The notes below the pieces were generated by a model. That model was not told where the DNA came from, searched no databases, and saw only the letters and a list, made by a program, of their open reading frames with translations. From Spirochaetaceae bacterium (lineage in GTDB: Bacteria; Spirochaetota; Spirochaetia; DSM-2461): 64,000 nucleotides of DNA. The stretch covers positions 2,400,001 through 2,464,000 of the forward strand of contig OZ245056.1 of NCBI GenBank assembly GCA_965224705.1, read 5' to 3'. This document shows positions 1,191 to 59,709 of the stretch, piece by piece. A program made the translations under genes and the position numbers. Each line of letters starts with the position of its first letter. Position 1 is the stretch's first letter.

Positions 1191-2082
1191 ACCAGTTATG
1201 TCTGAGGAGGTACTCAGGCATCTCGTCCCCAGCTGCAGGAATGTCTGCATCATTGATGCCACCCTTGGAGAGGGTGGTCATGCGTCAATGTTTCTTGAGG
1301 CGTATCCAGAATCGAAGGTTGTTGGTATTGATGCTGATCCAATCATGGTTGAAAGGGCTTCCATGCGATTATCATCATATTCTCCTGATCGGTTTGAGGG
1401 CAGGGTGGGGTGGAATGATGATGTACTGGCTGACTGGAAAGGCCCTGCACCCGGCATCGTTCTGGTGGATCTGGGGGTTTCTTATTATCACTATAAGAAA
1501 AGAGGGAAGGGATTTGCGTTCACTTCATCAGAGCCCCTGGATATGCGTCTCGATGACAGTGCTGAAGTTTCGGCATCAGATCTTGTCAATAAGCTTGGAG
1601 AAGATGATCTGGCCAATCTCATCTTCAAGTATGGGGAAGAGCGTTACAGCCGTCGAATTGCCAGACGGATTGTTGCCAGACGTCAGCAGAAAAAAATAGT
1701 AGAGTCCTCTGATTTAGCAAACATTGTTTATTCTGCTGTGCCTTCCAATTACAGATACGGTCGGCTTCATCCAGCTACAAAGACATTTCAAGCTCTTCGC
1801 ATTGCTGTTAATCATGAGTTGGACAGATTAGCCCGCATTCTGGATATGGTACCTGGAATGCTTGCCTCAAAGGGGAAACTGGGTGTAATCAGCTTTCATT
1901 CCCTGGAAGATCGGATGGTTAAGCAGACCTTTCGCAGCAGAGATGTGAAATACGGTGGGGATTGTACTGTTTATACGAAGAAACCGGTCGTTCCTTCTGA
2001 GAGTGAATGTCTGGAGAATCCTTCATCAAGGAGTGCGAAGTTCAGAGTTCTGGGCAGACCTGAAGTTGGAGGGAGTCAATGA
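1168..2082 (+). CDS. rsmH: 16S rRNA m4C1402 methyltransferase RsmH (MraW)
   Basis: HKPVM, DATLGEGGHA, DLGVS, PLDMR, HPATKTFQALRIAVN, ISFHSLEDR, NPSSRSAK motifs. Confidence 0.97.
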   Translation: MSVIPIHKPVMSEEVLRHLVPSCRNVCIIDATLGEGGHASMFLEAYPESKVVGIDADPIMVERASMRLSSYSPDRFEGRVGWNDDVLADWKGPAPGIVLVDLGVSYYHYKKRGKGFAFTSSEPLDMRLDDSAEVSASDLVNKLGEDDLANLIFKYGEERYSRRIARRIVARRQQKKIVESSDLANIVYSAVPSNYRYGRLHPATKTFQALRIAVNHELDRLARILDMVPGMLASKGKLGVISFHSLEDRMVKQTFRSRDVKYGGDCTVYTKKPVVPSESECLENPSSRSAKFRVLGRPEVGGSQ

Positions 2083-2369
2083 AACATGTTCTCGCTGCAC
2101 TGATCTTAGTGAGTATTCCGGCATTGTTGATGATGAAGGCATTGCAGTCCTATCGTTATACGGTTGCCCTTGAAGAAATAGGGGTTTATGAGGGTGCACA
2201 GGAAGAGTTGTTGGAGGAGAATAAACGATTACTGGCAGGAATAGCTGTATTCAGTGCGCCGGAAAGAGTGCATACCCTGGGGAAAGGTCCTCTGGAGCTT
2301 AATCCAGCTGATCATGAAAATGTGCTGCAGGTACAATTGCCTGAATCAATCGGAGAAAGCAGTGAATGA
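2079..2369 (+). CDS. ftsL: Cell division protein FtsL
   Basis: Small TM plus coiled-coil protein directly after rsmH (ATGA overlap). Called mainly from position. Confidence 0.75.
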   Translation: MKHVLAALILVSIPALLMMKALQSYRYTVALEEIGVYEGAQEELLEENKRLLAGIAVFSAPERVHTLGKGPLELNPADHENVLQVQLPESIGESSE

Positions 2370-3729
2370 ATTGCTGGATATGTTCAATGCCTCCATGCTT
2401 GCAGAGTTGACCGATGGTGAATTGCTGGGGAATCCTGATGCCGGGATTTGTCGAGCGAGAGCTGATTCTCGAATCTGCCAGACAGGTGATCTTTTTGTTG
2501 CGCTGCCAGGAAGAACGCAGGATGGCAGTCAGTTTGTCTTATCAGCATGGGAAGAGGGAGCAGAAGCTGCTCTTGTATCGAAAAGTCGAGATCTGCCTGC
2601 ACCGCCGCCGGGTAAATCATTGGTTATAGTTGATGATGCCCGGACAGCTCTTCTGAAAGCAGCCAGGGCTCGAAGAGAAGCGGCAAAGAATCTCAGGGTT
2701 GTCGGTATCACAGGGAGTAATGGGAAGACAACGACGAAGGATATCCTTGCAGCCATCATGGAGGCATGGAAGGGTTCTTCTGTTTTACACACCCAGGGTA
2801 ATTATAACTCGGATATTGGTCTTCCTCTTACTCTTTTTGATCTCCGGTCAAGACATGAATTTGCGGTTCTGGAAATGGGGATGAATCGCATTGGAGAGAT
2901 TGCACTTCTTGCGGATATTGCCCGGCCGGAAGTCGGGATTATAACAAATATCGGCCTGGCTCATGTCGGGGAAATTGGCTCTCTTGAATCTATTGCCAGT
3001 GAAAAAAAGGCAATTTTTAATTCATCCTCCTCCGTGGCTGTTGTTTCCGCAAATGAACCCTGGCGGGATTTTCTTGTTGGGAATTTTCCGGGTGAAGTGA
3101 GACTGTTTGGAAAGTGGGGGGAAAAAAACTGGATTGATTTTAAGGATGATGGAATTAAAGGGTATCGCATAAGACGGGGGAGGGGGGAGGTAAAATACCC
3201 TCTGGCCGGCAGGCATAATCTCCTTAATGCCATGGCGGCAGTGGAGGCCGCTCTTGCCCTTGGTGTGCCGGAATCTGCGATCGCATCCGGTTTGGAATCT
3301 GTAAAGCCGGCGGACAGCCGGTGTGAAATAATTGAAGGTAAATACACTGTTGTACGAGATTGTTACAATGCGAATCCTGAATCGCTGAATGCGGCACTTG
3401 AGTTCTTCAGGGGATTGAAATTGACTGGACGCCGCATTGTTATTTTAGGTGAGTTATTAGAATTAGGGAATGAAACCATACCAGCACTGAAGGTCGCTGG
3501 CAAAACTGTCGCCAGGATTGAACCCGAAGCAGTTTTTCTTTACGGGGATACTTCAATTTCAATAGAAGAATCTTTACTGGCCAGCGGCTATCAAGGTTCT
3601 CTACGGCGATATACAAATATGGGACAATTGAAATCAGATCTTCTCGGGTATAAAAAACCTGGGGATATTGTATTGATAAAAGGATCTCATGGGAATGCTC
3701 TTGAGCGTTTGTATGATGTTTTTGCATAA
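2362..3729 (+). CDS. murF: UDP-MurNAc-tripeptide:D-Ala-D-Ala ligase MurF
   Basis: DSR..GDLFVAL, GITGSNGKTTTKD, GNYNSDIGLP, EMGMN, DCYNANPES, KGS. Likely start GTG 2362 (track start 2254). Confidence 0.95.
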   Translation: MNELLDMFNASMLAELTDGELLGNPDAGICRARADSRICQTGDLFVALPGRTQDGSQFVLSAWEEGAEAALVSKSRDLPAPPPGKSLVIVDDARTALLKAARARREAAKNLRVVGITGSNGKTTTKDILAAIMEAWKGSSVLHTQGNYNSDIGLPLTLFDLRSRHEFAVLEMGMNRIGEIALLADIARPEVGIITNIGLAHVGEIGSLESIASEKKAIFNSSSSVAVVSANEPWRDFLVGNFPGEVRLFGKWGEKNWIDFKDDGIKGYRIRRGRGEVKYPLAGRHNLLNAMAAVEAALALGVPESAIASGLESVKPADSRCEIIEGKYTVVRDCYNANPESLNAALEFFRGLKLTGRRIVILGELLELGNETIPALKVAGKTVARIEPEAVFLYGDTSISIEESLLASGYQGSLRRYTNMGQLKSDLLGYKKPGDIVLIKGSHGNALERLYDVFA

Positions 3730-13620: not shown

Positions 13621-14974
13621 ACTGGATGGATTAACACCACAGGAAATTGTTGACTGGCTGGATCAATACATCATTGGCCAGAATGCCGCTAAGAAAGCTG
13701 TTGCCATTGCTCTGCGGAATCGCCAGCGCCGGGCTGTGCTTCCTGATGATATAAGGGATGAAGTGGCACCGAAAAACATACTGATGATTGGTCCTACTGG
13801 TGTTGGAAAAACAGAAATCGCCCGTCGACTGGCAAAACTTGGCGGAACACCATTCATCAAGGTGGAGGCGACTAAATTCACAGAGGTTGGTTATGTTGGC
13901 CGGGATGTCGAATCCATGGTCCGGGATCTTATCGCCAGGGCCGTATCAATGGTAAAGGATGAAATGAAAACCAGTGTCGAAAAGGCGGCCCATGAAGCCG
14001 CCGAGGAAGCACTTCTGGACATCCTTCTGCCCGGCTCTTCAGTACCACCTCCGGAGGGAGTTAATAGTACTACCCCGGTGGAGCCTGACAGGGGTAAATA
14101 TGCAAGAGAAGTCCTGAGAAAAAAACTCCTGGCCGGTGAACTGGATGACAGACTGGTGGAGATCACAGCAGGTTCCGGTCATCGTCCCCAGGTGGAAGTT
14201 ATTACCGGCTCAGGGATTGAGCAGATGGGATTTGATTTCAGCAGCTTCGGATCATTGTTTCAGGGTCAAAAAAAATCCCGTAAGGTGAAGGTTTCCCAGG
14301 CAAGGGATATTCTTCTAGCAGAGCATCAGGAAAAATTAATTGATTCTGAAAGTGCTGTGGAACTGGCAAGGGAGAAGGTTCAGAATGGCGGAATCATATT
14401 TATTGATGAGATCGATAAAATTGCGGGTAAGGGAGGTCACTCCGATGGACCCAATGTGTCACGGGAAGGGGTTCAAAGAGATATTCTCCCCATTGTAGAA
14501 GGATCCACAGTCAATACGAAATATGGGATGGTGGAAACCGATCATATTTTATTCATTGCCGCCGGTGCTTTCAATCTTTCCAAACCATCCGATCTCATTC
14601 CAGAACTTCAAGGCCGATTTCCTCTCCGAGTTGAACTTGAATCCCTTGATGCGGACGATTTCGAAGTTATTTTGACTTCGCCAAGAAATGCACTGACAAA
14701 GCAATATGTCGAGCTTCTGGCTACTGAAGGAATTGAACTCGAATTTCGGGATGATGCCGTTAAGCAGCTGTCGAAAATTGCAGCTGAAGTCAATGCACAA
14801 ACCGAGAACATTGGTGCCCGGCGGCTTCATACCGTTCTGGAGCATTTGCTGGAAGAGATTTCATTTGATGCCCCCGATCGGAAAGGGGAGAAGATAGTGC
14901 TGACAAAAGAATATGTGGATGAAAGACTGAGTGAAATTGTTGAGGATAGAGATTTATCGCGTTACATCCTCTGA
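13613..14974 (+). CDS. hslU: ATP-dependent protease ATPase HslU
   Basis: [19 protein letters not shown] pore motif, [17 protein letters not shown]-terminal DLSRYIL. Confidence 0.98.
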
Positions 14975-15040
14975 TATTCTCAGATTGCGGGGAGGGATTG
15001 TCGAAGATGAAGAAGAGGGCAAACCCTTTGGGAGGAAAAA

Positions 15041-15454
15041 ATGGAATATTCCAGTTTGAATCGTACGACGGATCTGTTACTGCGCAGCATGTCTGCGGCC
15101 ACTTTGCGCCGTCAGGTGATAGTAAACAATATGGCTAATGCCGAAACGCCTGGTTTCAAGCGTTCAGAAGTGAGCTTTGAAGCTGAACTTGCCCGCGCAC
15201 TGCGGAGAGAAAAAGGCAATCAGTCAATTGGAGTTACAACCCATGAGAAGCATATTCCATTCACCCAGAATGTTGATTATCGCAGTGTGAAACCAAAAGT
15301 TACTCTGGATTATCTTACTGTGGCTAAGAATAATGGCAACAATGTGGATGGGGAGATCGAATTGAACAACAGCATGAAGAATCAGATGATGTATGAACTG
15401 ATGACCAGCGTTATGGGACACCAGTTTCGAGTAGTGAACCTGGTTATTGAATAG
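15041..15454 (+). CDS. flgB: Flagellar basal-body rod protein FlgB
   Basis: R..VI.NNMANAETPGFK and NGNNVD motifs. Confidence 0.95.
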   Translation: MEYSSLNRTTDLLLRSMSAATLRRQVIVNNMANAETPGFKRSEVSFEAELARALRREKGNQSIGVTTHEKHIPFTQNVDYRSVKPKVTLDYLTVAKNNGNNVDGEIELNNSMKNQMMYELMTSVMGHQFRVVNLVIE

Positions 15455-15468
15455 GAGTGGTCTGATCA

Positions 15469-15927
15469 ATGGGTCTATTTACAACAATTAACACAGCCGC
15501 TTCCGGTTTAACGGCACAACGGCTGCGGCTGGATGTGATCTCTGACAATATTGCGAATGCCAATACAACAAGGACAGCGGAAGGCGGGCCGTACAGACGC
15601 AGCCGAGTCGTATTCAGGCCGAGAACAAAACAAACCTATTGGAGAAGTCCGTTTCTGCCTGATTTTCTCAAGAACAGGGTTGGCGATGGCGTTCGGGTTG
15701 TGTCCATTGAAAAGGATATGGATTCCGATCTGGTTCTCAAATGGGATCCTTCGCATCCGGATGCAATTAAAACAGGCCCGAAAACTGGATACGTTGAACT
15801 TCCCAATGTCAACATTGTCAATGAAATGGTGGATATGATTTCGGCTTCCAGGGCCTATGAAGCCAATATTGCCATCATTGATGGATCCAAGAGTATGTAT
15901 AGAAAAGCACTGGAGATAGGGAGGTAG
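15469..15927 (+). CDS. flgC: Flagellar basal-body rod protein FlgC
   Basis: SGLTAQRLRLDVISDNIANA, GGPYRR, PSHPDA, PNVNIVNEMVDMISASRAYEAN. Confidence 0.97.
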   Translation: MGLFTTINTAASGLTAQRLRLDVISDNIANANTTRTAEGGPYRRSRVVFRPRTKQTYWRSPFLPDFLKNRVGDGVRVVSIEKDMDSDLVLKWDPSHPDAIKTGPKTGYVELPNVNIVNEMVDMISASRAYEANIAIIDGSKSMYRKALEIGR

Positions 15928-45808: not shown

Positions 45809-47271
45809 CGCGGCGTGAAAGACTGAGCCAGCGTTTAGCTGTCTTAATTGAGTCATTGCTTGAAAAAAAGGCTTCATGGTCTGGTGACTTTTACTCCGGT
45901 ATCAGTCTGGAAGGCCGGTCTGTTCACTGGTTTCTCACTGCCCAGCGTATAGGAAAACGTCTCAATCTTATTGAAACCGTTACCGGATCCGATCAGGATT
46001 CAAGGGTTGTACGGGCATGGACAGTTATTTCTGCGGGAAAGGATCAATGGAGCCTTGAAGCCGCTGAAAAAAACCATGAAGAGTTACCGGAAGAATGGAT
46101 AAATGATGAACTTGAAGAGACAATTGGCCGCCTGGAAGACCCGGAAACAGCAAGGTCAACATTGGAAGTTCCCAAGGCCAGATTGATTGACTCAATCGTT
46201 CCTTCACCAATTCATGGAACATGGCCCAGGCGTTTACGGCTCGGATATGGAATCGGGGTATTCATACTGGCGTTTTTCATTCTGGTAACAGTCAGTACGT
46301 ATCAATTTCACAGGATGGCAGGTCTGGTCAGGGAGATTCATTCGACTATAGATGTATCCTCAACCAGACAGATCCAGACGGATCAGACAATCAGTGCCCG
46401 GCTGAAAGCCATGGACAATGAAATAGAGAAACTCAGGAATGATATTCAGCGGGAACGCATGGCCTTTGAATTCACCCGCAAAAATACGGCTATGTCACTT
46501 CGAGAACAGGCGGAAGGTTTCTCACGGGATGACTACTCCAGATTCCGTGCCTGGAACCATCTCGCAGATCGGGTTGAATATGCTGGTAGTTATGGAGATA
46601 TCTTCCAGGAAATCTCACGTTTACCTGAAAATAATGCCCAGGCCGAGACAGTGATGGCACTGGATAGAGCCAGGATAGTTCCTTTGTCGGCATATCGTTC
46701 AACTGTTCACCAGTTGTTGTTTCCGGTTCGTCTGGATGGCAAAGGGGCCGATGGAGATGATTTCATGATTTCCAGTGGTTTCGGAGAATTGCGTCCCTCC
46801 AGTCTGGGTACAGGCGGATATTTGCCCCACATGGCTGTTGATATTATCAATATCAGAAACATTCTCACCGTTACCCCGGGAAACTCCATCATACGATTTC
46901 CAGGTGAACCCGGAAATGTTGTAGCGTCAGCGAATGGCGAGGTAGTCGAGAAGGAATACAGCAGCATCTACGGCTGGTTTATCGAGGTGAATCATCCCAT
47001 CAATCCGATCTGGCAGAAGAATTTTTCGGGACTGAAATATCTCACAACTTTCTATGCACATCTGGCCGATAAGCCGGTCTGGAATGTGGGAGATGCCGTG
47101 CGTCAAAGTGATAAGCTTGGTTCTATAGGCAATACTGGTAAGACAACAGGGCCTCATCTTCATTTTGAAGTGAGAGTTTATCGAGATAATGCAGAGTTTC
47201 ACGGTAAACTTGGAAAATTTGACAGAATCAATCCCTTCGTCCCGATTGGGAATCAGGGTTTGGAGCCATAA
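45805..47271 (+). CDS. Membrane-anchored M23-family peptidase
   Basis: TM near aa 145-165, coiled coil, H-x3-D (HMAVD), YAHL, GNTG.TTGPHLHFE. Confidence 0.88.
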   Translation: MTRRERLSQRLAVLIESLLEKKASWSGDFYSGISLEGRSVHWFLTAQRIGKRLNLIETVTGSDQDSRVVRAWTVISAGKDQWSLEAAEKNHEELPEEWINDELEETIGRLEDPETARSTLEVPKARLIDSIVPSPIHGTWPRRLRLGYGIGVFILAFFILVTVSTYQFHRMAGLVREIHSTIDVSSTRQIQTDQTISARLKAMDNEIEKLRNDIQRERMAFEFTRKNTAMSLREQAEGFSRDDYSRFRAWNHLADRVEYAGSYGDIFQEISRLPENNAQAETVMALDRARIVPLSAYRSTVHQLLFPVRLDGKGADGDDFMISSGFGELRPSSLGTGGYLPHMAVDIINIRNILTVTPGNSIIRFPGEPGNVVASANGEVVEKEYSSIYGWFIEVNHPINPIWQKNFSGLKYLTTFYAHLADKPVWNVGDAVRQSDKLGSIGNTGKTTGPHLHFEVRVYRDNAEFHGKLGKFDRINPFVPIGNQGLEP

Positions 47272-47663
47272 ACCTCCAGGGGATTGAACAGGGGATCAGA
47301 AATGATTTTCAATTTGTTATCTTCAATACGGTAGAAGAAACAGCTTCTTCGGCCTGTATGACACGCAGCATCTCCTGCTTGCTGGACCTTTAGAAGAACT
47401 GTATCCCTGTCACAATCCAGAAAAATCTCCTTCACATATTGTTTATTGCCCGAAGTTTCGCCTTTCTCCCATATGCGGCATTGTGATCTCGACCAATAAA
47501 CGGCGACACCTCGTTCCATGGTCATATTCCACGCCTCAAGGTTCATCCACGCCAGCATCAAAACTTCACCAGAGGTATAATCCTGTGCGATAACCGGAAC
47601 CAGTCCGCTTGCTTCATTAAAACTGGGTATCAAAGGGGATTCAGCTTTCAAGGCGTTCTTCAA
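47253..47663 (-). CDS. hisI: Phosphoribosyl-AMP cyclohydrolase
   Basis: GLVPVIAQD, VLMLAWMN, WSRS...W.KGETSG, DCD.D, ACHTG..SCF. Confidence 0.95.
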   Translation of the reverse strand: MKNALKAESPLIPSFNEASGLVPVIAQDYTSGEVLMLAWMNLEAWNMTMERGVAVYWSRSQCRIWEKGETSGNKQYVKEIFLDCDRDTVLLKVQQAGDAACHTGRRSCFFYRIEDNKLKIISDPLFNPLEVYGSKP

Positions 47664-48102
47664 TCGGACTCAACAGGAAGTGAAGCTCATCGCAGGAGAT
47701 AACTCGATTGTCGGGTTTTCTGCCATCCAGTTTACTGAGTTTTTCTTTGATTATTAGAATATCATCCAGATGATCGGCTGCAATCTTCTTGATTTCTGAA
47801 AATTCAGGCTTGAATACTGTCAGGTAGTCATCTTTCGCCCTGAGAATGGTTTCAAGCAGTTTTCCATACACGACTTTAGTTTTCATGATGGAATGGAGAT
47901 GGGTCGGACCGTGGATGAGATTGTTATTCTCGATCAATGATGTGTAGATTTTTTGAATAATTGTATTGATGAAGAGGCAGTCTTCAAGAATTTTCGATGC
48001 AAAATACTCCGCATTGACATTGAGTTTGATGGCATCATGGAGATTACGAATCATCACCATGAGAAAGAAGATATTGTCATCATATTGAATTCTTTTCGTC
48101 AT
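47641..48102 (-). CDS. Hypothetical protein
   Basis: 153-aa ORF divergent from rpsF and overlapping the hisI start; helical; no recognised motif. Confidence 0.65.
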   Translation of the reverse strand: MTKRIQYDDNIFFLMVMIRNLHDAIKLNVNAEYFASKILEDCLFINTIIQKIYTSLIENNNLIHGPTHLHSIMKTKVVYGKLLETILRAKDDYLTVFKPEFSEIKKIAADHLDDILIIKEKLSKLDGRKPDNRVISCDELHFLLSPIEERLES

Positions 48103-48147
48103 ATCAGTTCTATTACTCTTTCTTTATCGGTGAGTGCGATGATTTGC

Positions 48148-48176
48148 TTGACGCTATTTCGATTTTCATATAGTCT
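48148..48176 (+). promoter_or_regulatory. Putative sigma70 promoter of the rpsF operon
   Basis: TTGACG (48148-48153), 17 nt, TAGTCT (48171-48176). Confidence 0.55.
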
Positions 48177-48181
48177 TCTTT

Positions 48182-48230
48182 GACTCCTTTCCTATACTAT
48201 TTATAGGACAAGTATGTCCATAAGGAGACT
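48182..48230 (+). promoter_or_regulatory. Putative S6:S18 autogenous leader RNA
   Basis: CTCCTT can pair with the AAGGAG SD of rpsF, enclosing CCTATA/TATAGG or GGACA/TGTCC stems. This matches the known S6:S18 leader architecture. Confidence 0.6.
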
Positions 48231-48234
48231 GAGA

Positions 48235-48525
48235 ATGAGGAACTACGAATTGGTTTGTGCCTTCCGAATAAAGGAAGCACAGGATGTTAAAGGAATTGAG
48301 GCAGTCAAAGAAATACTGACCAATATCAAGTCTGACATCAAATCTGAAGTCGATATGGGAGACAGGGAACTTGCTTACGAAGTGGACAATGAAACTCGGG
48401 CACGTTACCGTCTGTTCAATATTGAACTGGATCAGAAATCACTTCCCAGAGTTGAGGAATCGTTGAAGCTGCGTACAGAAATTCTACGCTACCTTTTTGT
48501 CGCTAAGCAATTATCAACAGTTTAG
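48235..48525 (+). CDS. rpsF: 30S ribosomal protein S6
   Basis: MRNYEL, G.RELAYEV, ILRYL; first gene of rpsF-ssb-rpsR. Confidence 0.93.
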   Translation: MRNYELVCAFRIKEAQDVKGIEAVKEILTNIKSDIKSEVDMGDRELAYEVDNETRARYRLFNIELDQKSLPRVEESLKLRTEILRYLFVAKQLSTV

Positions 48526-48533
48526 GAGGGAAT

Positions 48534-48989
48534 ATGGCCGATATAAATAAAGTTGTATTGGTTGGGCGACTCACTCGAGATGCAGAACAATCCTATACAA
48601 GGAATGGTTTTGCCCTTCTGAAGTTTGCAGTTGCTGTGAATCGGCGACGAAAGCAGGGTGATCAATGGATTGATGAAGCAAATTTTTTTGATGCGACAGT
48701 TTTTGGGCGTCAGGGAGAAGCGATTGCGTCCTTTATGAAGAAGGGGAAACAGGTCGCCATCGAGGGACAGCTTCATCAGGAACGATGGGAAGCCCAGGAT
48801 GGATCAAAACGTTCGAAAGTAAGCATAGATGTGAATAATATTCAACTTCTGGGATCAGGTCGCAGGGATGACTTTACTTCAGAGAGTGATTACCAGCCCC
48901 ATGCGGATAAAGAGCCCCTCCCCGCACAGAGTTCCGGAGCCAGCATTGGATTCCCGGAGACGAATTTTGAAGATGATATACCATTCTAG
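48534..48989 (+). CDS. ssb: Single-stranded DNA-binding protein
   Basis: INKVVLVGRLTRD, KGKQV.IEG.L, C-terminal DDIPF. Confidence 0.98.
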   Translation: MADINKVVLVGRLTRDAEQSYTRNGFALLKFAVAVNRRRKQGDQWIDEANFFDATVFGRQGEAIASFMKKGKQVAIEGQLHQERWEAQDGSKRSKVSIDVNNIQLLGSGRRDDFTSESDYQPHADKEPLPAQSSGASIGFPETNFEDDIPF

Positions 48990-49150
48990 GAGTCTGTCGG
49001 ACTTACGCCTCACGGCTCGATTTTTGCCCTTTTCCCCTGCTGCTGCGTTGCCAAAATACTCACGTAGCCCAGCTACGCTCCGTTTTTGTCGCCTTGCATC
49101 AGGGAAAAATCATCAAAAATCGCCTCAAAGACTTAAAGTCCGACGGACTC
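48990..49150 (+). mobile_element. 161-bp palindromic MITE-like element, copy 1
   Basis: TIRs GAGTCTGTCGGACTT / AAGTCCGACGGACTC. Differs from the reverse complement of the copy at 53963-54123 at 17 of 161 positions (manual count). Preceded by CTAG (ssb stop). Confidence 0.9.
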
Positions 49151-49175
49151 CCGAGAAAACATAAGGAGAGAAATA

Positions 49176-49481
49176 ATGTCTGATCATAGTAATGAAATGA
49201 GAGCGGATTCCCATGATTATCGTTCATCCGGACTCCGCGATGACAGGGACGACAGAGGAGGAGCTCGCCGCAAATTTTTCAGACGGAAGGTTTGCAGAGT
49301 GTGTATTGGCAAGATCAGGATTGACTACAAGGAATCGGATGCACTCAGCCGTTTCACAACAGAAAGAGGTAAGATTCTCCCCCGTCGGATTACCGGTACC
49401 TGTGCCAGACATCAAAGGCTGGTTGCGCGTGAGATTAAGAGGGCCAGAATTCTGGCCCTACTCCCGTTTGCCGCTAAGTAA
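49176..49481 (+). CDS. rpsR: 30S ribosomal protein S18 (Zn-ribbon type, N-terminal extension)
   Basis: [42 protein letters not shown]. Confidence 0.97.
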
Positions 49482-49493
49482 GGAGACCTGTCA

Positions 49494-50048
49494 ATGAAAA
49501 TCATACTTTACAGTGATGTTCCCAACCTTGGTGAGGAGGGTGATGTCAAAGTCGTTGCTGATGGCTATGCTCGAAATTATCTGATTCCCCGTAAATTTGC
49601 TGTACGATACTCGAAAGCAACAGAAATGGAATTGACCCAGAAACAAAGAGCAATTTCCCAGCGTAAGGCTGAAAAAACACTTGCGGCTGCTGGAGACAAG
49701 ACCAGAATTGAGTTGTTGGAAATGAATCTGGATGTTGCGGCAGGGGAATCCGGAAAACTTTTTGGTTCGGTTACCAGTTCCGCTGTTGCCGATTATCTGA
49801 GCATTCAGGGGATAATGGTCGAACGGAAGAGAATTGAATTACCGGACAGTGGAATCAAAGTTGTTGGTTCTCACTCAGTGACAGTCAAACTCTATGGCGG
49901 TGAAAGGGCTGTTCTAAAAGTCAATGTTTCGGCTATCGGGAATACGGACTCTGTGGCAGCGCAGGAAATTGCTGACAGCGATAAACCGAACAATCTGCCG
50001 TCAATTGAAGATGAGGATTCAGAAATCGAAATCAACGGGGAGGAATGA
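49494..50048 (+). CDS. rplI: 50S ribosomal protein L9
   Basis: MKIIL..DV.NLG..GD...V..GYARNYLIP, GKLFGSVT. Confidence 0.97.
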   Translation: MKIILYSDVPNLGEEGDVKVVADGYARNYLIPRKFAVRYSKATEMELTQKQRAISQRKAEKTLAAAGDKTRIELLEMNLDVAAGESGKLFGSVTSSAVADYLSIQGIMVERKRIELPDSGIKVVGSHSVTVKLYGGERAVLKVNVSAIGNTDSVAAQEIADSDKPNNLPSIEDEDSEIEINGEE

Positions 50049-51406
50049 TATCTTTGGCGATGGAGTCACTACAAAAATCAATTCCTCCATACAATGAAGA
50101 GGCGGAAATGGCCACTCTTGGAGCTCTACTGCTCAATTTCTCCGTGGATTTCCTGGACGAAGTTCAACAGCATGTCAATGCTGATGATTTTTATAAGAGT
50201 GCTCATCAACTCATATTCAAGGGAATTGCCACTCTTAATGAAAAGGGCGAGGGAGTTGATATCCTCACTCTCACTGACATGCTTACCTCTACGGGTGACA
50301 TAGAGAGGGTCGGTGGAACATCGTACATAGCATCCCTCACATCCAGAGTTCCTACAACGGCCAATGTTTCCTACTATGCGAAGATCGTTAAGGAAGCAAG
50401 TATGCGCCGTTCTTTGCTTAAGGCGGCAAGGGATGTCATTGCCCAGGTTTACGATGATACATTGGAGATTCGTCATGCAATTGAAGAGGCAGAGAAATCT
50501 ATTTTTGACCTCATCGACAACCAGAGACGGGGAGAACTCAAACCAGCCGGATCCGTGATATCGGATACGGTTAAGAAAATCGAAGAACGAATTCATTCAA
50601 AGCAGGCATACACCGGAATACCGTCAGGATTCAAGGAGATTGACACCCTCACCAGTGGTTTTCAGGATTCAGAGGTAACAATTATTGGAGCCAGACCATC
50701 CGTCGGTAAAACAGCATTGGCTCTTACCATGGCAACCAATATTGCCGTAAGGAGTAATATTCCCTGCGGATTTTTTACCCTGGAGATGTCTGCGGTCTCA
50801 CTGATGATGAGGATTGTATCATCGGTCAGCAACATAGATTCCAACAAAATCCGCACTGGATTAATGGGAAAGAAGGATATGAATAAACTCACATTGGCTG
50901 CAGGAGATATCTATGAAGCTCCATTGATATTGCAGGATACTCCCAACATCCCTCTTCTCGATCTTCGATCTCTGGCCAGAAAAATGGTCATTAAGCACAT
51001 GGTTCGGATCATTTTCATTGATTACCTGGGCCTGATAACCCCTGAAGATATTTCTATTCCACGTCATGAGCAAATTGCATCTATCAGCCGTTCCTTGAAA
51101 TCTCTTGCTCGTGAACTCAACATCCCTGTCGTTGCCCTCTCCCAGGTTGGCCGACAGTCACATTTTAAAGCACCCTCATTAGCTGATTTGCGTGAGTCAG
51201 GAGCTTTGGAGCAGGATGCCGATGTTGTATTCTTGCTGTATCGAGAACACGATGCGGATAAAACAGGTGCTGAACAACAGAGCAGTGAATTTGTTGAAAC
51301 TATACTATCGGTCGCCAAGCAGCGAAACGGCCCTACTGGAGTTTTGAAGCTTAATTTCATACCTCGATATACACGTTATCAGCAATTCAATTATGATGGT
51401 GCTTAG
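50045..51406 (+). CDS. dnaB: Replicative DNA helicase
   Basis: PP...EAE, GARPSVGKT, IDYLGL, LSQ, DLRESGALEQDAD, AKQRNGPTG. Normal length, so no intein. Confidence 0.98.
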   Translation: MISLAMESLQKSIPPYNEEAEMATLGALLLNFSVDFLDEVQQHVNADDFYKSAHQLIFKGIATLNEKGEGVDILTLTDMLTSTGDIERVGGTSYIASLTSRVPTTANVSYYAKIVKEASMRRSLLKAARDVIAQVYDDTLEIRHAIEEAEKSIFDLIDNQRRGELKPAGSVISDTVKKIEERIHSKQAYTGIPSGFKEIDTLTSGFQDSEVTIIGARPSVGKTALALTMATNIAVRSNIPCGFFTLEMSAVSLMMRIVSSVSNIDSNKIRTGLMGKKDMNKLTLAAGDIYEAPLILQDTPNIPLLDLRSLARKMVIKHMVRIIFIDYLGLITPEDISIPRHEQIASISRSLKSLARELNIPVVALSQVGRQSHFKAPSLADLRESGALEQDADVVFLLYREHDADKTGAEQQSSEFVETILSVAKQRNGPTGVLKLNFIPRYTRYQQFNYDGA

Positions 51407-51414
51407 GAGGAATT

Positions 51415-51720
51415 ATGGCTCTATCTGATATGTATGATCTTTCAGTTCTCGGCAATCAAATCGAAGAATTTGTATTCGATGAGTTGGAAAGCCAGCTTGA
51501 TTCAGTTGAACACAAAGGCATCTGTAAGTGCAATGATTGCATTCTTGACATGGCTTGTTTTGCTCTGAATCAGCTCTCACCCAGTTACAGCTCATCCCTG
51601 ATGGGAAAAATCTACAACCAGGAAGTATATCAAAATGAAATACCAAAAGTTAAAGCAAAAGTCAGGGAAGCTATAATTAAAATTAGTCAGAATCCATTGT
51701 GCGGCAATAATACTCTTTAA
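51415..51720 (+). CDS. ComFB-family protein
   Basis: N..EE.V...L.......CKC..C..D.AC.ALN.L.P.Y signature; AGGAGG RBS. Confidence 0.85.
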   Translation: MALSDMYDLSVLGNQIEEFVFDELESQLDSVEHKGICKCNDCILDMACFALNQLSPSYSSSLMGKIYNQEVYQNEIPKVKAKVREAIIKISQNPLCGNNTL

Positions 51721-53789
51721 TTCAGATCCAGGATATTCAGGTTTTTCAGCCTGGATGGATTGAGTTCTTTTCTACCGCTGTACAGGATGAAATTCCCCAG
51801 TGCTTCTTTGGTTGTCCACATTGTATCCCGGTTCGGACTCTGGGCCAGCCATAGATCTCCCTTGAAGAAACGGACACTCAGCAAGGCTTGCTTACCTCTT
51901 TTTGCATCCCAGAGAATCAGTTTCCCGCCCGCATCTATTCCGTAGAGAAAATTTCCCTGTTCGTAGAGACTTATTATCTGTTCATCCCATTCAAATTTTT
52001 TCCTCTGATTTCCGCTAATCCTGGTTATTGTACCGCCTAGAGTCGTGTACACTCCACCATCTGATTGATCTGGAATAACAATGGCATTGAAATCTTCACC
52101 ATCGATTCGAGCCAGTAGTCTGGAAACCGCGGGATCTTCAATATTATGAGCCCTCAGTTCTGTGGTCATCTCACCGCGATTTTTTCGGGAAGCACCCAGA
52201 GTGTAAAAGAATTGTCCATCAGAAGTAATGCTGTAAACTATAAATCGATCATCAGGAATGGGAGAGGACTCTTTTGTTGACATCTCAATTCTTTCCAGAG
52301 AAGCATGGTTTTTCTTATTAACGGATCGGCCGACAAGGACGAAATTCCCATCTGGAGAATAAGATGCATCCAGTATTCCCAGAGATGTGTATTTATCCAG
52401 TATCATTCCGTTCTGGATGTCTGAAATTCGTATCGTCCCGGTATTATCCACGGTCAGGGTCTGTTCACTGTCAATGACTTCAAGTTCCTGTATCATTGTA
52501 TTGTTCATTAGATATTTCATGTCTGCGGGATAATCGAAATCTAAAACTCTTATTCCTTTATCAGCTGTCTGTTCAGTCCACAGAAGAACGTCACCGTTAG
52601 AGATGATTTCCAGACCAGTGCCCCCAACAGATAGACCTGACATTGTCAGATTATCTGTGAGTTTTTCCAGATTATTGGAATCTTCATGGGAGTTTGAATT
52701 AAAAAATGGAGATGTGAAACGCAGTATTCTGCGACTGTTACTGATGTACATTTGATCATTGTAAAACTCTGAATCCTGTGGATACCACAGTACATCACGG
52801 ATGATTTCTGATAACCCCAGTTCTGTATGCTGGAATAATTCACCAGAAGAAGTCGCAATATAGGTATGATCTTTGTCTCTGGTAATGCTGACAGGGGGAG
52901 ATGGTGTCTGCAATAGGAATTTTGTCGGCTTGTAGTCTCTGTCAATGAAATCTCCATCAATTATTGTAAACTGCTGAACCATTGAACCTGAGTTCGTTTG
53001 AACGAGAACGTCCAGGTAGCCATTTGAAGCATCAATGACGGTATCAATAATTCCAGGGATACTCAATGTACTCTGAACAGCACCTGTTTGACGGTTGATA
53101 GTGTAAAGGGTGTCGGAATTGCGGGCGAGTAGATTCAGTTTTTCACCAGTCTGAAGTACAACAATATCCTGTAAGTCCGGAAGTGTGTTGACAGTCATTT
53201 TTCGGGCCGATGCCGAAATATCCCAGTAATGAATGACGCCGCTTGAAGAGTACGCCATCAAAATTTTTTCAGTTCGACCGATGTATCCCATGTCGTACAA
53301 TGAGGAGATGTTCTTCAAGTAGGATAATTGTCGGCCAGTTTTGCTCTCGATAATGAGTATGTTGGGTGCATCAATTTTTCCTGCAACCAGATATTTCCCC
53401 CTGGTAGACCAGGATATGTAAAGAGGTTGGGCATTGAAAGAAAACCTGTATAGTTCTTTCTCGTCATTCCAATCCCAGACAGAAAGGGTGTATGAATCAT
53501 TCTCTGATGAGATCAATGCTATTCTGTTTCCTGTTGGATCGCTTCGAAACAGATGACTTTTACCATTTGTTACCTTGATTCGATGGAGAACTTTTCTGGA
53601 TTTCGGATTGGTAACGATGAGTATTCCATCCTGCCCGACAGAAAGAATCATGCCGGATTTCCTGTGCCACTGTACATCAACAGGTTTACCCCTGTGAAAC
53701 GATTGGATGACAAGTCGATCAACGGCTGATACCTGATGAACAGACAACGCAAAGAACAGGATGAAAGATACAGGCTGGAAGAATCGCAT
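51717..53789 (-). CDS. Exported WD40/beta-propeller protein
   Basis: Signal peptide MRFFQPVSFILFFALSVHQVSA at ATG 53789; WD-like repeats (LSVGQDG, SVWDW, HYWDI, ILWD). The track's extra 116 N-terminal residues come almost entirely from the repeat element. Confidence 0.8.
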   Translation of the reverse strand: MRFFQPVSFILFFALSVHQVSAVDRLVIQSFHRGKPVDVQWHRKSGMILSVGQDGILIVTNPKSRKVLHRIKVTNGKSHLFRSDPTGNRIALISSENDSYTLSVWDWNDEKELYRFSFNAQPLYISWSTRGKYLVAGKIDAPNILIIESKTGRQLSYLKNISSLYDMGYIGRTEKILMAYSSSGVIHYWDISASARKMTVNTLPDLQDIVVLQTGEKLNLLARNSDTLYTINRQTGAVQSTLSIPGIIDTVIDASNGYLDVLVQTNSGSMVQQFTIIDGDFIDRDYKPTKFLLQTPSPPVSITRDKDHTYIATSSGELFQHTELGLSEIIRDVLWYPQDSEFYNDQMYISNSRRILRFTSPFFNSNSHEDSNNLEKLTDNLTMSGLSVGGTGLEIISNGDVLLWTEQTADKGIRVLDFDYPADMKYLMNNTMIQELEVIDSEQTLTVDNTGTIRISDIQNGMILDKYTSLGILDASYSPDGNFVLVGRSVNKKNHASLERIEMSTKESSPIPDDRFIVYSITSDGQFFYTLGASRKNRGEMTTELRAHNIEDPAVSRLLARIDGEDFNAIVIPDQSDGGVYTTLGGTITRISGNQRKKFEWDEQIISLYEQGNFLYGIDAGGKLILWDAKRGKQALLSVRFFKGDLWLAQSPNRDTMWTTKEALGNFILYSGRKELNPSRLKNLNILDLN

Positions 53790-53797
53790 TACTCCAG

Positions 53798-53958
53798 GAG
53801 TCTGTCGGACTTTAAGACTTCGAGGCGATTTTTGATGATTTTTTTCTGATACAAGGCGCCAAAAGCGGAGCGTAGCTGGGCTACGTGAGCATTTTGGCAA
53901 CGCGGTAGCGGGAAAAAAGGGCAAAAATCGAGCCGTGAGGCGGAAGTCCGACAGACTT
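53798..53958 (-). mobile_element. 161-bp palindromic MITE-like element, copy 2
   Basis: TIRs GAGTCTGTCGGACTT / AAGTCCGACAGACTT; flanked by CCAG on both sides (+ strand). Confidence 0.9.
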
Positions 53959-53962
53959 CCAG

Positions 53963-54123
53963 GAGCCTGTCGGACTTTAAGACTTCGAGGCGATTTTTGA
54001 TGATTTTTTTCTGATACAAGGCGCCAAAAGCGGAGCGTAGCTGGGCTACGTGAGCATTTTGGCAACGCGGTAGCGGGAAAAAAGGGCAAAAATCGAGCCG
54101 TGAGGCGGAAGTCCGACAGGCTC
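53963..54123 (-). mobile_element. 161-bp palindromic MITE-like element, copy 3 (tandem with copy 2)
   Basis: Perfect TIRs GAGCCTGTCGGACTT / AAGTCCGACAGGCTC; interior identical to copy 2; flanked by CCAG and CTAG (rseP stop). Confidence 0.9.
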
Positions 54124-55512
54124 CTAGTGGCTGGCATCTTTATAACCCATTAAATCGCCGGTAGTCGCGATAATGGTGAGAATGAATACGATTATTATAC
54201 CTGCGATTTGATATCTGTAGATTAATTGAGGCTTCAATGGCCGTTTCTGTAACCATTCTGTAATGAATAACACGATTTGCCCTCCATCAAGAACAGGTAT
54301 GGGGAGGAGATTGAGAAAGGCCAGGGATATCGAAATAAATGCTATGAGTCTGGATGTCATTAAAAGACCGGGTCTGAACCCATATTGGAATCCCCTTACA
54401 ACGGTTTCACCGGTCAGGGAAATAAGACGGACAGGGCCGGAAACTGCATTCCGCAACTGTATCCCCATAAACATCATGCGAATACTCCGTAAGGTTGATT
54501 CAATTGTATTCCATGATTCTGATACCCCTCGACCTATTGCACCGAATAATCCCAGCTTTTCGGAACGACCGGTTCTCACTGCAAACTCAATACCCAGGTC
54601 CTCCCCGGAGGATAAATCCCAATTAGATTCAAGACGTTTCCCATCGCGCAGGAATTCGATGTTCACGGTGGTGTTTGAACTCTTCAGTGAATTGTAGATA
54701 TCAAAAGTGTGGGAGACAGGTTTATTGTTGATTGAGATGATCTCATCTCCAGATTGAAGCCCTGCCAGAGCGGCTATGGATTTTGATTCAATAGATGATA
54801 TCACCGGGTTCACCCAGTTCATCACTCCAATAACAGCTCTCCCATCGACTTTATCCAATTGAGGAGTAATTGTGGTGGACAGTTTTTTACCATCTCGAAG
54901 AAAAGTCAATGCGATTTTCTCACCTGGTCTGAATATCAATCTCTGCCGCAATTCCTGAAATCGGTCAATTTCCCTGTCATCAATTTCAAGAATGAGATCA
55001 CCAGTTTTCAATCCGGCTTCATCTGCGGGCCAGGTAAGGCCATCATCTGAGTATTCTGAGATCAGAATAATTCTAGGTTCTGTATACTGCTCATTGTATC
55101 CAATCCATGCAATTACTGTAAAAACAAGAATGGATAAAACAATATTACCTGCGGGGCCGGCAATGGATACAAGGATCCTTTTCCAGGGCGGACTGGCATA
55201 GAAATCACCTTTATTGGCAGGAATGGCCTGCATTCTTTTTTCCAAAGCCAATCTCAATGACTCTTCTCCGTCGAAACGGCAATACCCACCAAGAGGAATC
55301 AGGGATAACCTGTAGTCTGTTCCTTTGTATTGAAATCCAAGCAAACGCTTACCAAATCCTATAGAAAATGTCGTTACTCTTATTTTTACCAGTCGGGCAG
55401 CAAAGTAGTGACTGGCCTCATGGATCAATACAACGAAGGATAAACCTGCTATTCCAAGAGTTACTTTGGCAACGATGCTCAGTATTGGACTACTCAATTG
55501 TGTGCCTTCCAA
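54124..55512 (-). CDS. rseP: Site-2 intramembrane metalloprotease RseP
   Basis: HEASH, FSIGFG, IPLGGYC, AGP, two PDZ-like domains, NLLPIPVLDGG. Confidence 0.95.
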   Translation of the reverse strand: MEGTQLSSPILSIVAKVTLGIAGLSFVVLIHEASHYFAARLVKIRVTTFSIGFGKRLLGFQYKGTDYRLSLIPLGGYCRFDGEESLRLALEKRMQAIPANKGDFYASPPWKRILVSIAGPAGNIVLSILVFTVIAWIGYNEQYTEPRIILISEYSDDGLTWPADEAGLKTGDLILEIDDREIDRFQELRQRLIFRPGEKIALTFLRDGKKLSTTITPQLDKVDGRAVIGVMNWVNPVISSIESKSIAALAGLQSGDEIISINNKPVSHTFDIYNSLKSSNTTVNIEFLRDGKRLESNWDLSSGEDLGIEFAVRTGRSEKLGLFGAIGRGVSESWNTIESTLRSIRMMFMGIQLRNAVSGPVRLISLTGETVVRGFQYGFRPGLLMTSRLIAFISISLAFLNLLPIPVLDGGQIVLFITEWLQKRPLKPQLIYRYQIAGIIIVFILTIIATTGDLMGYKDASH

Positions 55513-56335
55513 TCTTAAGGAATATAATAAAAAGTGGTGCAGTGAACAGACATGAATCTATGGAATCCAATATCCCCCCTCGGCCAAGGATCACTCTTCC
55601 TGAATCCTTAACTCCAACAGCACGTTTAAGAGCCGACTCAACAAGATCTCCAATAATAACAGTAATACCCAATATGATGCCGAAAAAAAGAAGCTGCCAT
55701 AGTGTGTGGGGGAGCAGGCGGGGAAGAAACCGCGATGCGACGACGATGACAATGGCCGAAGATATAACACCGGCTATAAAACCTTCAAGGCTCTTATTGG
55801 GACTGACAGCAATCAGTTCACGGTGTTTACCAAGAAGTACACCAATAAGCCATGCACTTGAATCATTGAGAAAAATGATCAGCATAAATACAAAGATTGC
55901 ATAGCGATTTTGGGGCAGCAGACTGATTTCATGCATCCACCAGAGAAAATATCCTGGATATACAACCATTATCAATTTAGCACCAATGTTTTTGATAACA
56001 GAGGGGAACTCAGCCTCCGAGGCAAATACCGCATGGGTAAAAGCCCAGGTTATTCCGAGAGTAAGAGAAAGAATGGGTATTTCAGGATAAATCCAGCCTT
56101 GATGGACCAGCCATGAGAGGACAGGAGCCATAGCAGGAATAAAGATAGACCAGGGGGGAATGCTGATATCGGCCTGCCTGAACATGGCCCTCATCTCAAG
56201 ACCGGCAATAAGTCCAAGAATAACGATGAGTACTGTGTACCATATGTAGTATTTGAGAGGTGTAAAAAGAATCAGCATTCCCAGAAAAGGTATGGCGACG
56301 ACAAACAGGATGACTCTCTTCATTACATTACTCAT
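55490..56335 (-). CDS. cdsA: Phosphatidate cytidylyltransferase
   Basis: SPNKSLEG, GDLVESALKR..GVKDSG....GRGGILD.IDS. Confidence 0.95.
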   Translation of the reverse strand: MSNVMKRVILFVVAIPFLGMLILFTPLKYYIWYTVLIVILGLIAGLEMRAMFRQADISIPPWSIFIPAMAPVLSWLVHQGWIYPEIPILSLTLGITWAFTHAVFASEAEFPSVIKNIGAKLIMVVYPGYFLWWMHEISLLPQNRYAIFVFMLIIFLNDSSAWLIGVLLGKHRELIAVSPNKSLEGFIAGVISSAIVIVVASRFLPRLLPHTLWQLLFFGIILGITVIIGDLVESALKRAVGVKDSGRVILGRGGILDSIDSCLFTAPLFIIFLKIGRHTIE

Positions 56336-58449: not shown

Positions 58450-59709
58450 TTATTCACTCCCATCTTTGTCAGAACTGACATTATTTTCCTGGTTTGCATC
58501 TTCCTTCTTCTTTTTCTTTTCTTTAGTTGTATTGGAACTTTTGGTTCTGGTTTTTCCAGGGGCTGTTGTTTTTGTCTTCGCGGCAGCTTTTGCCCTGTCG
58601 GAAGTCTCTGCTATGTCAGAAGCCTCCACCCTGTCGGAAGTTTCCTCTATGTCGGAAGTCTCCGCTATGTCGGAAGTTTCCGCTATGTCAGAAGTTTCCG
58701 CTATGTCGGAAGCCTCCGCTATGTCAGAAGTCTCTGCTATGTCGGAAGCCTCCACCATGTCGGAAGTTTCCGCTATGTCAGAAGTCTCTGCTATGTCAGA
58801 AGTCTCTGCTATGTCAGAAGTCTCTGCTATGTCAGAAGTCTCCGCTATGTCGGAAGTTTCCGCTATGTCGGAAGTTTCCACCATGTCAGAAGTCTCCGCT
58901 ATGTCAAAAGACTCCACCCTGTCGGAAATGGTTATGGAGTTCTTTTCCAGGGTGTCTGTTTCAGTAATTGGTTCTGCCTGGAGTTCCTCATCGTCATCCT
59001 GTAAAGTTTCTATAACCTTCAGTCCCTGTTCATTGTCAGCTTCAATAACGGCGTTGGCAATGACCTGGGTAAACAGGTTGATTGCTCTAATTGCATCATC
59101 ATTACCCGGGATCGGGAAGTCAATTCCCTCAGGATTGCAGTTCGTGTCAACGATCGCTATAATAGGGATCCCCATACGCCGAGCTTCAGCAACCGCTATC
59201 GCTTCCTTTCTTGTATCAATAACGAACATGACTCCCGGGAGATCATTCATATTCTTGATACCGCCGAGATTCTTTTCCAGTCGGCCTTTTTCCTTGAGCA
59301 ATTTGGCTACTTCTTTCTTGGTAAGTTGATCAAAGGTACCATCAATCTCCATCTTTTCAAGTTTTTTCAGCCTTAAAAGTGATCTCTTGATAGTACTGAA
59401 ATTGGTCAGCATACCACCCAGCCAGCGATTGTTTACGTAGAACATTTCACAACGCTCAGCTTCATTTTTGACCGAAGCCTGGGCCTGTTTCTTCGTTCCG
59501 ACAAACAATACCGATTGACCGGCCAGAACCGTTTGCCGGACAAGATCGTATGAATTCTTGATGGCAATTATGGTCTTTTGTAAGTTGATAATATGAATCC
59601 CATTCCTCTTGGTGAAGATGTATTTATTCATTCTGGGATCCCAGCGACGGGTGTGATGACCGAAATGGACACCAGATTCCAACAGGTTCTTCATGGTTAC
59701 AACAGCCAC
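58450..59709 (-). CDS. rpsB: 30S ribosomal protein S2 with a long repetitive C-terminal tail
   Basis: [46 protein letters not shown] start with GAGGAGG RBS. Confidence 0.98.
58594..58927 (-). repeat. 18-bp tandem repeat (~18.5 copies) encoding (SDIAET)n in rpsB
   Basis: Unit ~TGTC(G/A)GAAGT(C/T)TC(C/T)GCTA; anchors run from 58596 to 58920 at an exact 18-bp period. Confidence 0.97.

Follow-up and report, generated by a model that had tools for sequence, protein, structure and literature searches.

A miniature element with IS1182-type ends and an ERIC-like hairpin core dispersed through a Spirochaetaceae genome

The window analysed here, a stretch of 64,000 nucleotides from a Spirochaetaceae bacterium (assembly GCA_965224705.1, contig OZ245056.1, positions 2,400,001 to 2,464,000), carries three copies of a 161-bp transposable element of the miniature inverted-repeat class (MITE) between housekeeping genes. 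Copy 1 (48990..49150, + strand), bounded by a 15-bp terminal inverted repeat (TIR), lies directly 3' of the stop codon of ssb (48534..48989, +; PF00436) and upstream of rpsR, encoding ribosomal protein S18 (49176..49481, +; PF01084). Copies 2 (53798..53958, -) and 3 (53963..54123, -) are arranged head to tail with a single 4-mer between them and a period of 165; copy 3 directly follows the stop of rseP (54124..55512, -), encoding an M50 peptidase with a PDZ domain, and beyond copy 2 lies a beta-propeller gene (51717..53789, -) with its likely start at 53789. For the latter the open reading frame finder had called 116 extra N-terminal codons, which traverse copies 2 and 3 and are absent from the sister genome G009. 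An earlier note on this DNA had given the coordinates and strands of the three copies correctly, and its placing of both loci between these genes was confirmed by domain matches; the neighbours are co-oriented. Copies 1 and 3 differ at 17 positions, as claimed there, copies 1 and 2 at 16, and copies 2 and 3, with identical interiors, at three, all without indels. The 15-bp TIR ascribed to every copy is perfect in copy 3 but has one mismatch each in copies 1 and 2. Copy 1 folds strongly (-61.5 kcal/mol, z -7.3; none of 200 shuffles equally good), and the element forms an imperfect rod rather than a full palindrome.

Both loci start immediately 3' of a TAG stop within CTAG: the left target 4-mer of copy 1 (48986..48989, +) contains the stop of ssb, and that of copy 3 (54124..54127, -) the stop of rseP. 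The right 4-mer of copy 1 (49151-49154) is a degraded CCGA, and the other 4-mers of the rseP pair (53959-53962 and 53794-53797) read CTGG on the minus strand. Contigs of run X3, from a different study and a strain with scattered single-nucleotide polymorphisms, enter the element ends at 49011, 49106 and 53822, stop inside elements at three of the four outer junctions and leave the rseP-side junction almost uncovered; because they run into these ends, an assembly artefact is excluded for the ssb copy and for the left end of the rseP pair. No contig of RNA run X5 (contigs only, with strand and level unreadable) bridged an element. The window contains no TIR-bearing transposase, as had been noticed before, and every long TIR pair lies elsewhere in the genome.

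Throughout the 3.006-Mb genome (code G000, main contig C1), blastn of the 161-mer gave 100 matches of at least 150 nt, the further copies that had been expected, and pairing of TIRs yielded 152 elements shorter than 300 bp, with 29 left and 44 right ends left unpaired. The repeat family occupies ~0.9% of the genome. By size, 99 of the 152 elements measure 154-162 bp, 18 measure 285-287 bp, 21 measure 46-56 bp and 14 fall elsewhere. Members of the 161-bp class have a median identity of 95.7% to their own consensus, and one set consists of five identical copies. The 285-287-bp class (e.g. C1 188654-188939) carries ~125 bp extra with three further hairpins, and the tip of one of these, CCATCC-N-TGG, resembles by eye the YPAL/RU-2 centre printed in Table 1b of PMC2759123. 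A ~19-bp palindrome is inserted at several points inside decayed copies (C1, e.g. 380390, 1539100 and 2605660).

Exact 4-bp flank duplications accompany 68 of the 152 copies, against a mean of 12.5 and a maximum of 23 for shuffled flanks (2000 shuffles); flank repeats of other lengths (k=1-3, 5-9) occur in 0-3 copies each. The duplicated targets are CCAG/CTGG (19), CTAG (11), CAAG/CTTG (9) and some less frequent ones. Among the tetramers of this genome CTAG is the scarcest (observed/expected 0.28), yet it is ~720-fold enriched among exact duplications, and a drift of CTAG flanks fits the general CTAG depletion. A Vsr-driven drift towards CCAG/CTGG was rejected, as the genome gave no PF03852 match; C5 methylases are present. 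Gene positions were taken from an in-house hexamer caller (2478 predicted genes, no annotation used). A TIR lies directly behind 17 of 66 predicted genes ending in CTAG and behind none of 171 ending in GTAG, and TIRs abut 54 of 305 CTAG sites that are at stops or lie outside predicted coding sequence, compared with 3 of 370 inside it.

Queries made of joined flanks matched for 32 of the 152 copies; removal of 16 tandem self-hits left 16 copies with paralogous empty sites, which contain a single 4-mer and of which one is at 100% identity. Other genomes compared below have the codes G001, G003, G007, G009, G012 and G018. The rseP site of G009 is shorter by exactly 330 bp, i.e. two periods of 165, a site in an amylase-family gene described below is also empty there, and in four other congeners the ssb site is a short empty gap. 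Further copies in the genome, empty sites and an insertion sequence (IS) with the same TIR, the three checks proposed in the earlier note, all favour its view of a non-autonomous mobile element; that note had not picked up the duplication of 4 bp, the division into size classes or the core common to other elements. The length of 161 bp, open frames of element length only, the 15-bp TIR, the 4-bp duplication, the many dispersed copies and the empty sites are those of a MITE.

The IS with the same ends is an intact IS1182-family element located ~870 kb from the window copies (C1:1526965-1528569), with 1605 bp enclosed by its TIR pair, CTAG on both sides and an unbroken 461-aa frame. Its transposase scores 324 bits with NF033551 (cut-off 270), has the domains DUF772 and DDE_Tnp_1_6 and shows candidate D, D and E motifs, chosen by pattern, at 142, 336 and 413. 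The right end of the MITE matches the left end of the IS over ~20 nt, and the left end of the MITE resembles the right end of the IS, so that both elements show the same asymmetry between left and right ends; four decayed relatives start with the same end. The element shares with this member of the IS1182 family the TIR and the 4-bp CTAG duplication, whereas the interior of the MITE has no counterpart in the IS. An origin of the MITE by internal deletion of the IS was rejected, since the likeness stops after ~20 nt, blastn matched the IS at its ends only and the core described below is absent from the IS; the interior is a captured module rather than an IS remnant. G009, G012 and G001 hold only fragments or 24-31% identical IS1182 elements with other ends, and different ends excluded the IS1182 elements of G009, G012 and G007 as partners. 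Among plasmids, blastn with the 161-bp element gave no match, and ISAzo2-like records were among the best matches of the transposase (~42%); a PDB search with the transposase gave no match. Judged by the shared ends and duplications, the IS1182-family transposase of the same genome very probably mobilises the MITE in trans. By analogy with the DDE family, it would bind both TIRs and insert the element at a 4-nt staggered cut.

The interior of the element consists of a 70-80 nt strand-asymmetric hairpin with fixed purine-rich loops, hereafter the core, comprising outer AAG and CAA bulges and an inner GGA/GA loop. Its structured (GGAG/UGA) strand is the minus strand in copy 1 (49035..49105; 100 bits with a covariance model built with copy 1 itself) and the plus strand in copies 2 (53843..53913) and 3 (54008..54078). 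Of the 62 distinct 161-mers, every one has the better fold on its reverse strand. Across 24 cores from the family, pairing holds for 94.5% of cells (slid controls 28-43%; relatedness among the 24 inflates the shuffle control), with changes on both sides at 12 of the 25 pairs. An alifold consensus of 72 copies gave implausible structures and was used for single pairs only; a compensatory change is found even in the TIR itself, at positions 13/149. For the structured strand the prediction, supported by covariation, is a rod in which a tandem G.A-type inner loop and A-rich outer bulges lie at a fixed spacing. Kink-turn or C/D box motifs have a 3-nt bulge adjoining tandem G.A pairs; identity with them was rejected, as the aligned cores have 0-1 extra base beside the GA/GA pair. 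Rfam gave no match at E<=1 in window positions 47000-56000 and none on spirochaete cores; V_AS5 and sX9 match distant core-bearing members below threshold on opposite strands, the sX9 match lying on the strand opposite the structured one.

The same core is found between different ends. A second family of MITEs (B) of ~163 bp has another TIR (C1, e.g. 964129-964293, 1634333-1634497 and 1750310-1750474) and 4-bp duplications, mostly T-N-N-A/T, and is the main carrier of the core in G001, G003 and G012, while in G018 the core lies between third ends. Furthermore, the CTAG that copy 1 occupies behind ssb holds in G009 a different MITE type of ~140 bp (L012:1957-2096) with its own 13-bp TIR, which includes the inner core hairpin in the opposite orientation.

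The core also resembles ERIC, IRU and RU-1, in which the structured strand has the order AAGGYR, arm, GGAG, stem-loop, UGA, arm and AACGC or a variant (PMC2759123, PMC2229807). With model R1, built from the family cores, E. coli K-12 gave five matches at E<=10, each of which has the inner GGAG-stem-UGA motif; one of them (L085; 20.7 bits, E 0.1) is an ERIC-type copy with the full layout. The other four (L082-L084, L086) belong to another E. coli repeat, with ends unlike ERIC and an outer motif that does not fit. Blast from the ERIC-type copy at aceF-lpd found thirteen ERIC-type copies, of which 12 were tested, one reversed match being left out; 11 of the 12, and L085, fit a relaxed descriptor that was loosened at the 3' motif after the E. 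coli copies were seen, and 5 of the 12 fit the strict 3' motif. The printed ERIC consensus (PMC2759123) has by eye the same layout. Both in ERIC and in our element the same strand folds better and the open frames lie on the opposite one. ERIC differs in its 127 bp, TA duplication, other ends and long arm of 18-19 nt (PMC2759123, PMC2229807), whereas the present element has 161 bp, a short arm of 8 nt, IS1182 ends and a 4-bp duplication; the likeness proposed here is one of layout. By size, duplication and ends the element therefore falls outside ERIC/IRU, with which it agrees in the central hairpin layout.

A search with an exact degenerate pattern, one genome per species, gave at least 117 loci with 109 distinct cores, 67 after dereplication. 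Going by record titles, these presumably represent at least eight phyla, which we take to be Pseudomonadota, Desulfobacterota, Acidobacteriota, Bacillota, Bacteroidota, Campylobacterota, Myxococcota and Spirochaetota. At positions free of the pattern, the arms of the 67 cores pair at -12.2 kcal/mol, compared with -5.4 with swapped partners, and the outer stems at -13.8 compared with -5.2 kcal/mol. One apical pair is Watson-Crick in 67/67 (three types) and another in 66/67, and the GGAG strand is the better-folding one in 47 vs 19 and 50 vs 16 comparisons. The 5' arm, for which 5-25 nt were allowed, measures 7-8 nt in 12 cores, 16-19 nt in 54 and 23 in one, never 9-15, so that the loop spacing takes two values ~10 bp apart. 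Clear TIRs of many unrelated types were seen at 41 of the 117 listed loci. Model R1, run over 151 genomes of the phylum, matched in 6, and the short-arm model is thus patchy there. The shared core is real and is conserved across elements with unrelated ends.

A possible role of the core can be judged from copies that have lost it. In the 53- and 46-bp classes the hairpin has been removed cleanly, from one 5-6-nt direct repeat to the other at its foot, and the 17 coreless 53-mers are all distinct. Their ends are more decayed, matching a common haplotype exactly in 2 of 16 cases compared with 48 of 82 for long copies, and the mean distance of coreless copies is 2.6 to long copies with the core virtually deleted and 3.4 among themselves; one shares a paralogous site with two 161-mers and has the ends of one of them. 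From these comparisons the coreless derivatives look like in-place deletions, dead ends that do not amplify. In addition, a group II intron of 2035 nt (TIGR04416 over cut-off and an Rfam match, no endonuclease domain found) is present in three full copies (C1 333809-331775, 1073373-1071337 and 1654474-1652440) and three truncated ones (C1 1533615-1534287, 1942784-1943455 and 2471783-2472355). It inserts at CG(A/G)A|G, immediately 5' of hairpins. Four of the six copies lie in these MITEs, with MITE sequence at the 3' flank, three of the four at the inner loop and always on the structured strand; on the 5' side, two of these four are cut short or rearranged. A further copy lies in another hairpin. 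Of the intron's short target word, 145 of the 4734 sites fall in MITEs. The placement of the intron hints that the structured strand folds in vivo. The intron is presumably class C-like, though the hairpin is 3' of its site. The reverse nesting occurs in G001, where a family-B MITE lies within several copies of a related group II intron (L051, L056, L060, L064, L068 and L076).

Taken together, the MITE would be mobilised in trans by the IS1182 transposase, and its ERIC-like core would aid its propagation; this joint reading, drawn from sequence comparison, has in our estimate a probability of about 0.8. The structured strand would fold transiently and be bound by a widely conserved host factor, and such binding would favour transposition or retention. 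The grounds for inferring this binding are that one module recurs between ends of unrelated kinds and that copies without it stop amplifying. Taken alone, a role of the core in the propagation of the element is a suggestion to which we give slightly less than even odds, and it is likely that the layout is common to ERIC and to elements of many phyla because it helps such elements spread. Several observations weigh against this reading. The duplication is exact in only 68 copies, and that of copy 1 is inexact. Length alone explains the non-amplifying 53-mers equally well. The conservation of the loop letters among the at least 117 loci holds by construction, as these letters belonged to the search pattern, and within the genus some variants alter inner-loop letters. 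No intact close homologue of the transposase was found full-length among 13 congeners, 9 of which have the MITE (many of these matches being to the core alone); the distribution of the helper is thus patchy. For family B, no autonomous partner was found near a lone end or by pairing ends. No replichore bias was seen (57/108, p 0.63), the GC skew being irregular and unreliable.

As to placement, 150 of the 152 copies are not enclosed by predicted genes and 2 lie inside. The element with its duplication amounts to 55 codons, and of 72 exact 161-mers, 70 have one forward frame open and 68 another, while no reverse frame is open. One 55-codon copy is inserted in frame in an alpha-amylase-family gene (C1:1828367-1831693, -), whose G009 orthologue lacks exactly those 55 residues; a 53-bp copy adds 19 codons in frame to a PF00144 serine-hydrolase gene (C1:2955875-2956990, +), where the 57-bp insert could be compared with a 41% homologue only, which gaps at the insert without a clean empty site. 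Of 26 copies adjoining a stop codon, 21 are in forward orientation (p 0.002), as are 57 of 87 copies in co-oriented gaps (p 0.005), the orientation of two or three rearranged copies being possibly mis-called by the script. Orientation near genes is thus biased. Copies would persist chiefly at targets overlapping a TAG stop or in other non-coding DNA and, close behind genes, chiefly in the orientation that brings the weaker-folding, stop-free strand into the mRNA; the selection behind the bias is our interpretation.

The same bias bears on the possibility that the core acts as RNA after insertion, co-transcribed copies altering mRNA processing or stability and core-bearing copies being retained by host selection. 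Among core-bearing copies the bias is strongest near upstream stops (24:6 within 30 bp, 22:15 beyond), orientation-dependent effects of ERIC on mRNA in Yersinia have been reviewed (PMC2229807), tandem G.A pairs and an 11-bp step suit RNA, and the sub-threshold Rfam matches fall on core-bearing elements. However, the strand favoured in mRNA is the weaker-folding one (the forward fold is the better in 0/62 distinct 161-mers), as if the structured strand were avoided, the insertions are species-specific, with the core reversed at the ssb site of G009, and the V_AS5 and sX9 matches lie on opposite strands. We therefore regard a function as RNA as unlikely. An improbable alternative is that the core is functionless, an old filler of suitable length whose pairing arose through template switching and which spread among end types by nesting or recombination. 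Family A (the 161-bp family) has indeed inserted into family B as well as into its own copies, A/B end hybrids occur, and template switching in palindromes can change both sides in a single step; yet it would remove bulges and affect both strands equally, whereas the arms vary freely yet pair, favour one strand and occur in two lengths only, and ERIC copies found without the search pattern keep the same loops. Finally, movement by another enzyme, either via RNA by the reverse transcriptase of the group II intron or as single-stranded DNA by a hairpin-recognising recombinase, with incidental IS-like ends, has in its favour that the core is strand-specific like attC-type sites and that intron copies lie on the structured strand, but is very improbable given the precise TIR ends, the 4-bp duplications as around the IS and the compensatory change within the TIR, all of which suit a DDE transposase.

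The reading in which an IS1182 transposase moves the MITE has a precedent in MITEPye1 of Paracoccus yeei (PMC11578231), an intergenic element of 159 bp with 4-bp direct repeats, IS1182-type ends and a long stem-loop. Both are ~160 bp long with 4-bp repeats and the TIR of an IS1182 element, and in both the mobilisation was inferred; MITEPye1 has 1-3 copies per chromosome compared with ~150 here, a comparison made from its description. The present element departs from that description in its size classes, its in-frame insertions and a core that recurs between other ends. The novelty supposed in the earlier note is accordingly lower for the IS1182-ended MITE as such, a known type that is well supported here as a mobile element; no named spirochaete repeat or Rfam family matched, and the new part is the shared core. 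Rickettsia palindromic elements likewise add ~50 codons in frame to a conserved protein (PMC10969869, PMC2229807), but nearly half of some of those families lie in genes, compared with 2/152 here. The TIR and the 4-bp duplication argue against membership in REP/REPIN, which are short GTAG-type repeats with a RAYT partner and without TIR or duplication. Gamma-150, TD-1 and TD-2 are described as disjoint hairpins with no evident likeness (PMC1950547), and the MITE of PMC6053426, attributed to an IS630 element, was set aside as not relevant. Many MITEs occur in spirochaetes and MITEEc1 is listed as IS630 in PMC11602168, the available text of which does not mention a shared core. No paper on a core common to ERIC and to different MITEs came up in our searches, which had neither ISfinder nor most subscription papers, such as the first surveys of ERIC and of E. 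coli repeats, within reach.

In reviews, MITE interiors are described as decayed filler between TIRs (PMC10969869) and ERIC is said to lack any DNA motif other than its TIRs (PMC2229807). Both statements are contradicted by a core that compensatory changes have preserved in different phyla and with different transposase families, and such a core bears on why ERIC exists. We tentatively propose that ERIC, the present element and MITEs of many phyla might belong to a single superfamily whose defining feature is a portable strand-specific core rather than the ends; this core would dock a conserved host factor that reads a pair of asymmetric loops on the same face of the helix (spaced in one-turn steps) and let very short elements hijack unrelated DDE transposases. 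If so, this genome would be the first complete test kit, with an intact transposase, several end types, coreless dead ends and an intron marking the folded strand. Since the partner transposase is intact here, the question of the core is accessible to a plain transposition assay. In practical terms, the repeat lies behind a quarter of the CTAG-ending genes, causes false N-terminal extensions in gene calls and has lengthened one protein by 55 residues.

Several further multicopy elements, 1.3-2 kb long and bounded by terminal inverted repeats, are present in the genome in 7-9 copies each (C1, e.g. 14256-15522, 109923-111625 and 1748-3726), and the MITE hits some of them. Elsewhere in the window, an 18-bp tandem repeat (58527-58963) encoding ETSDIA units lengthens the C-terminus of ribosomal protein S2 (58450-59709, -).

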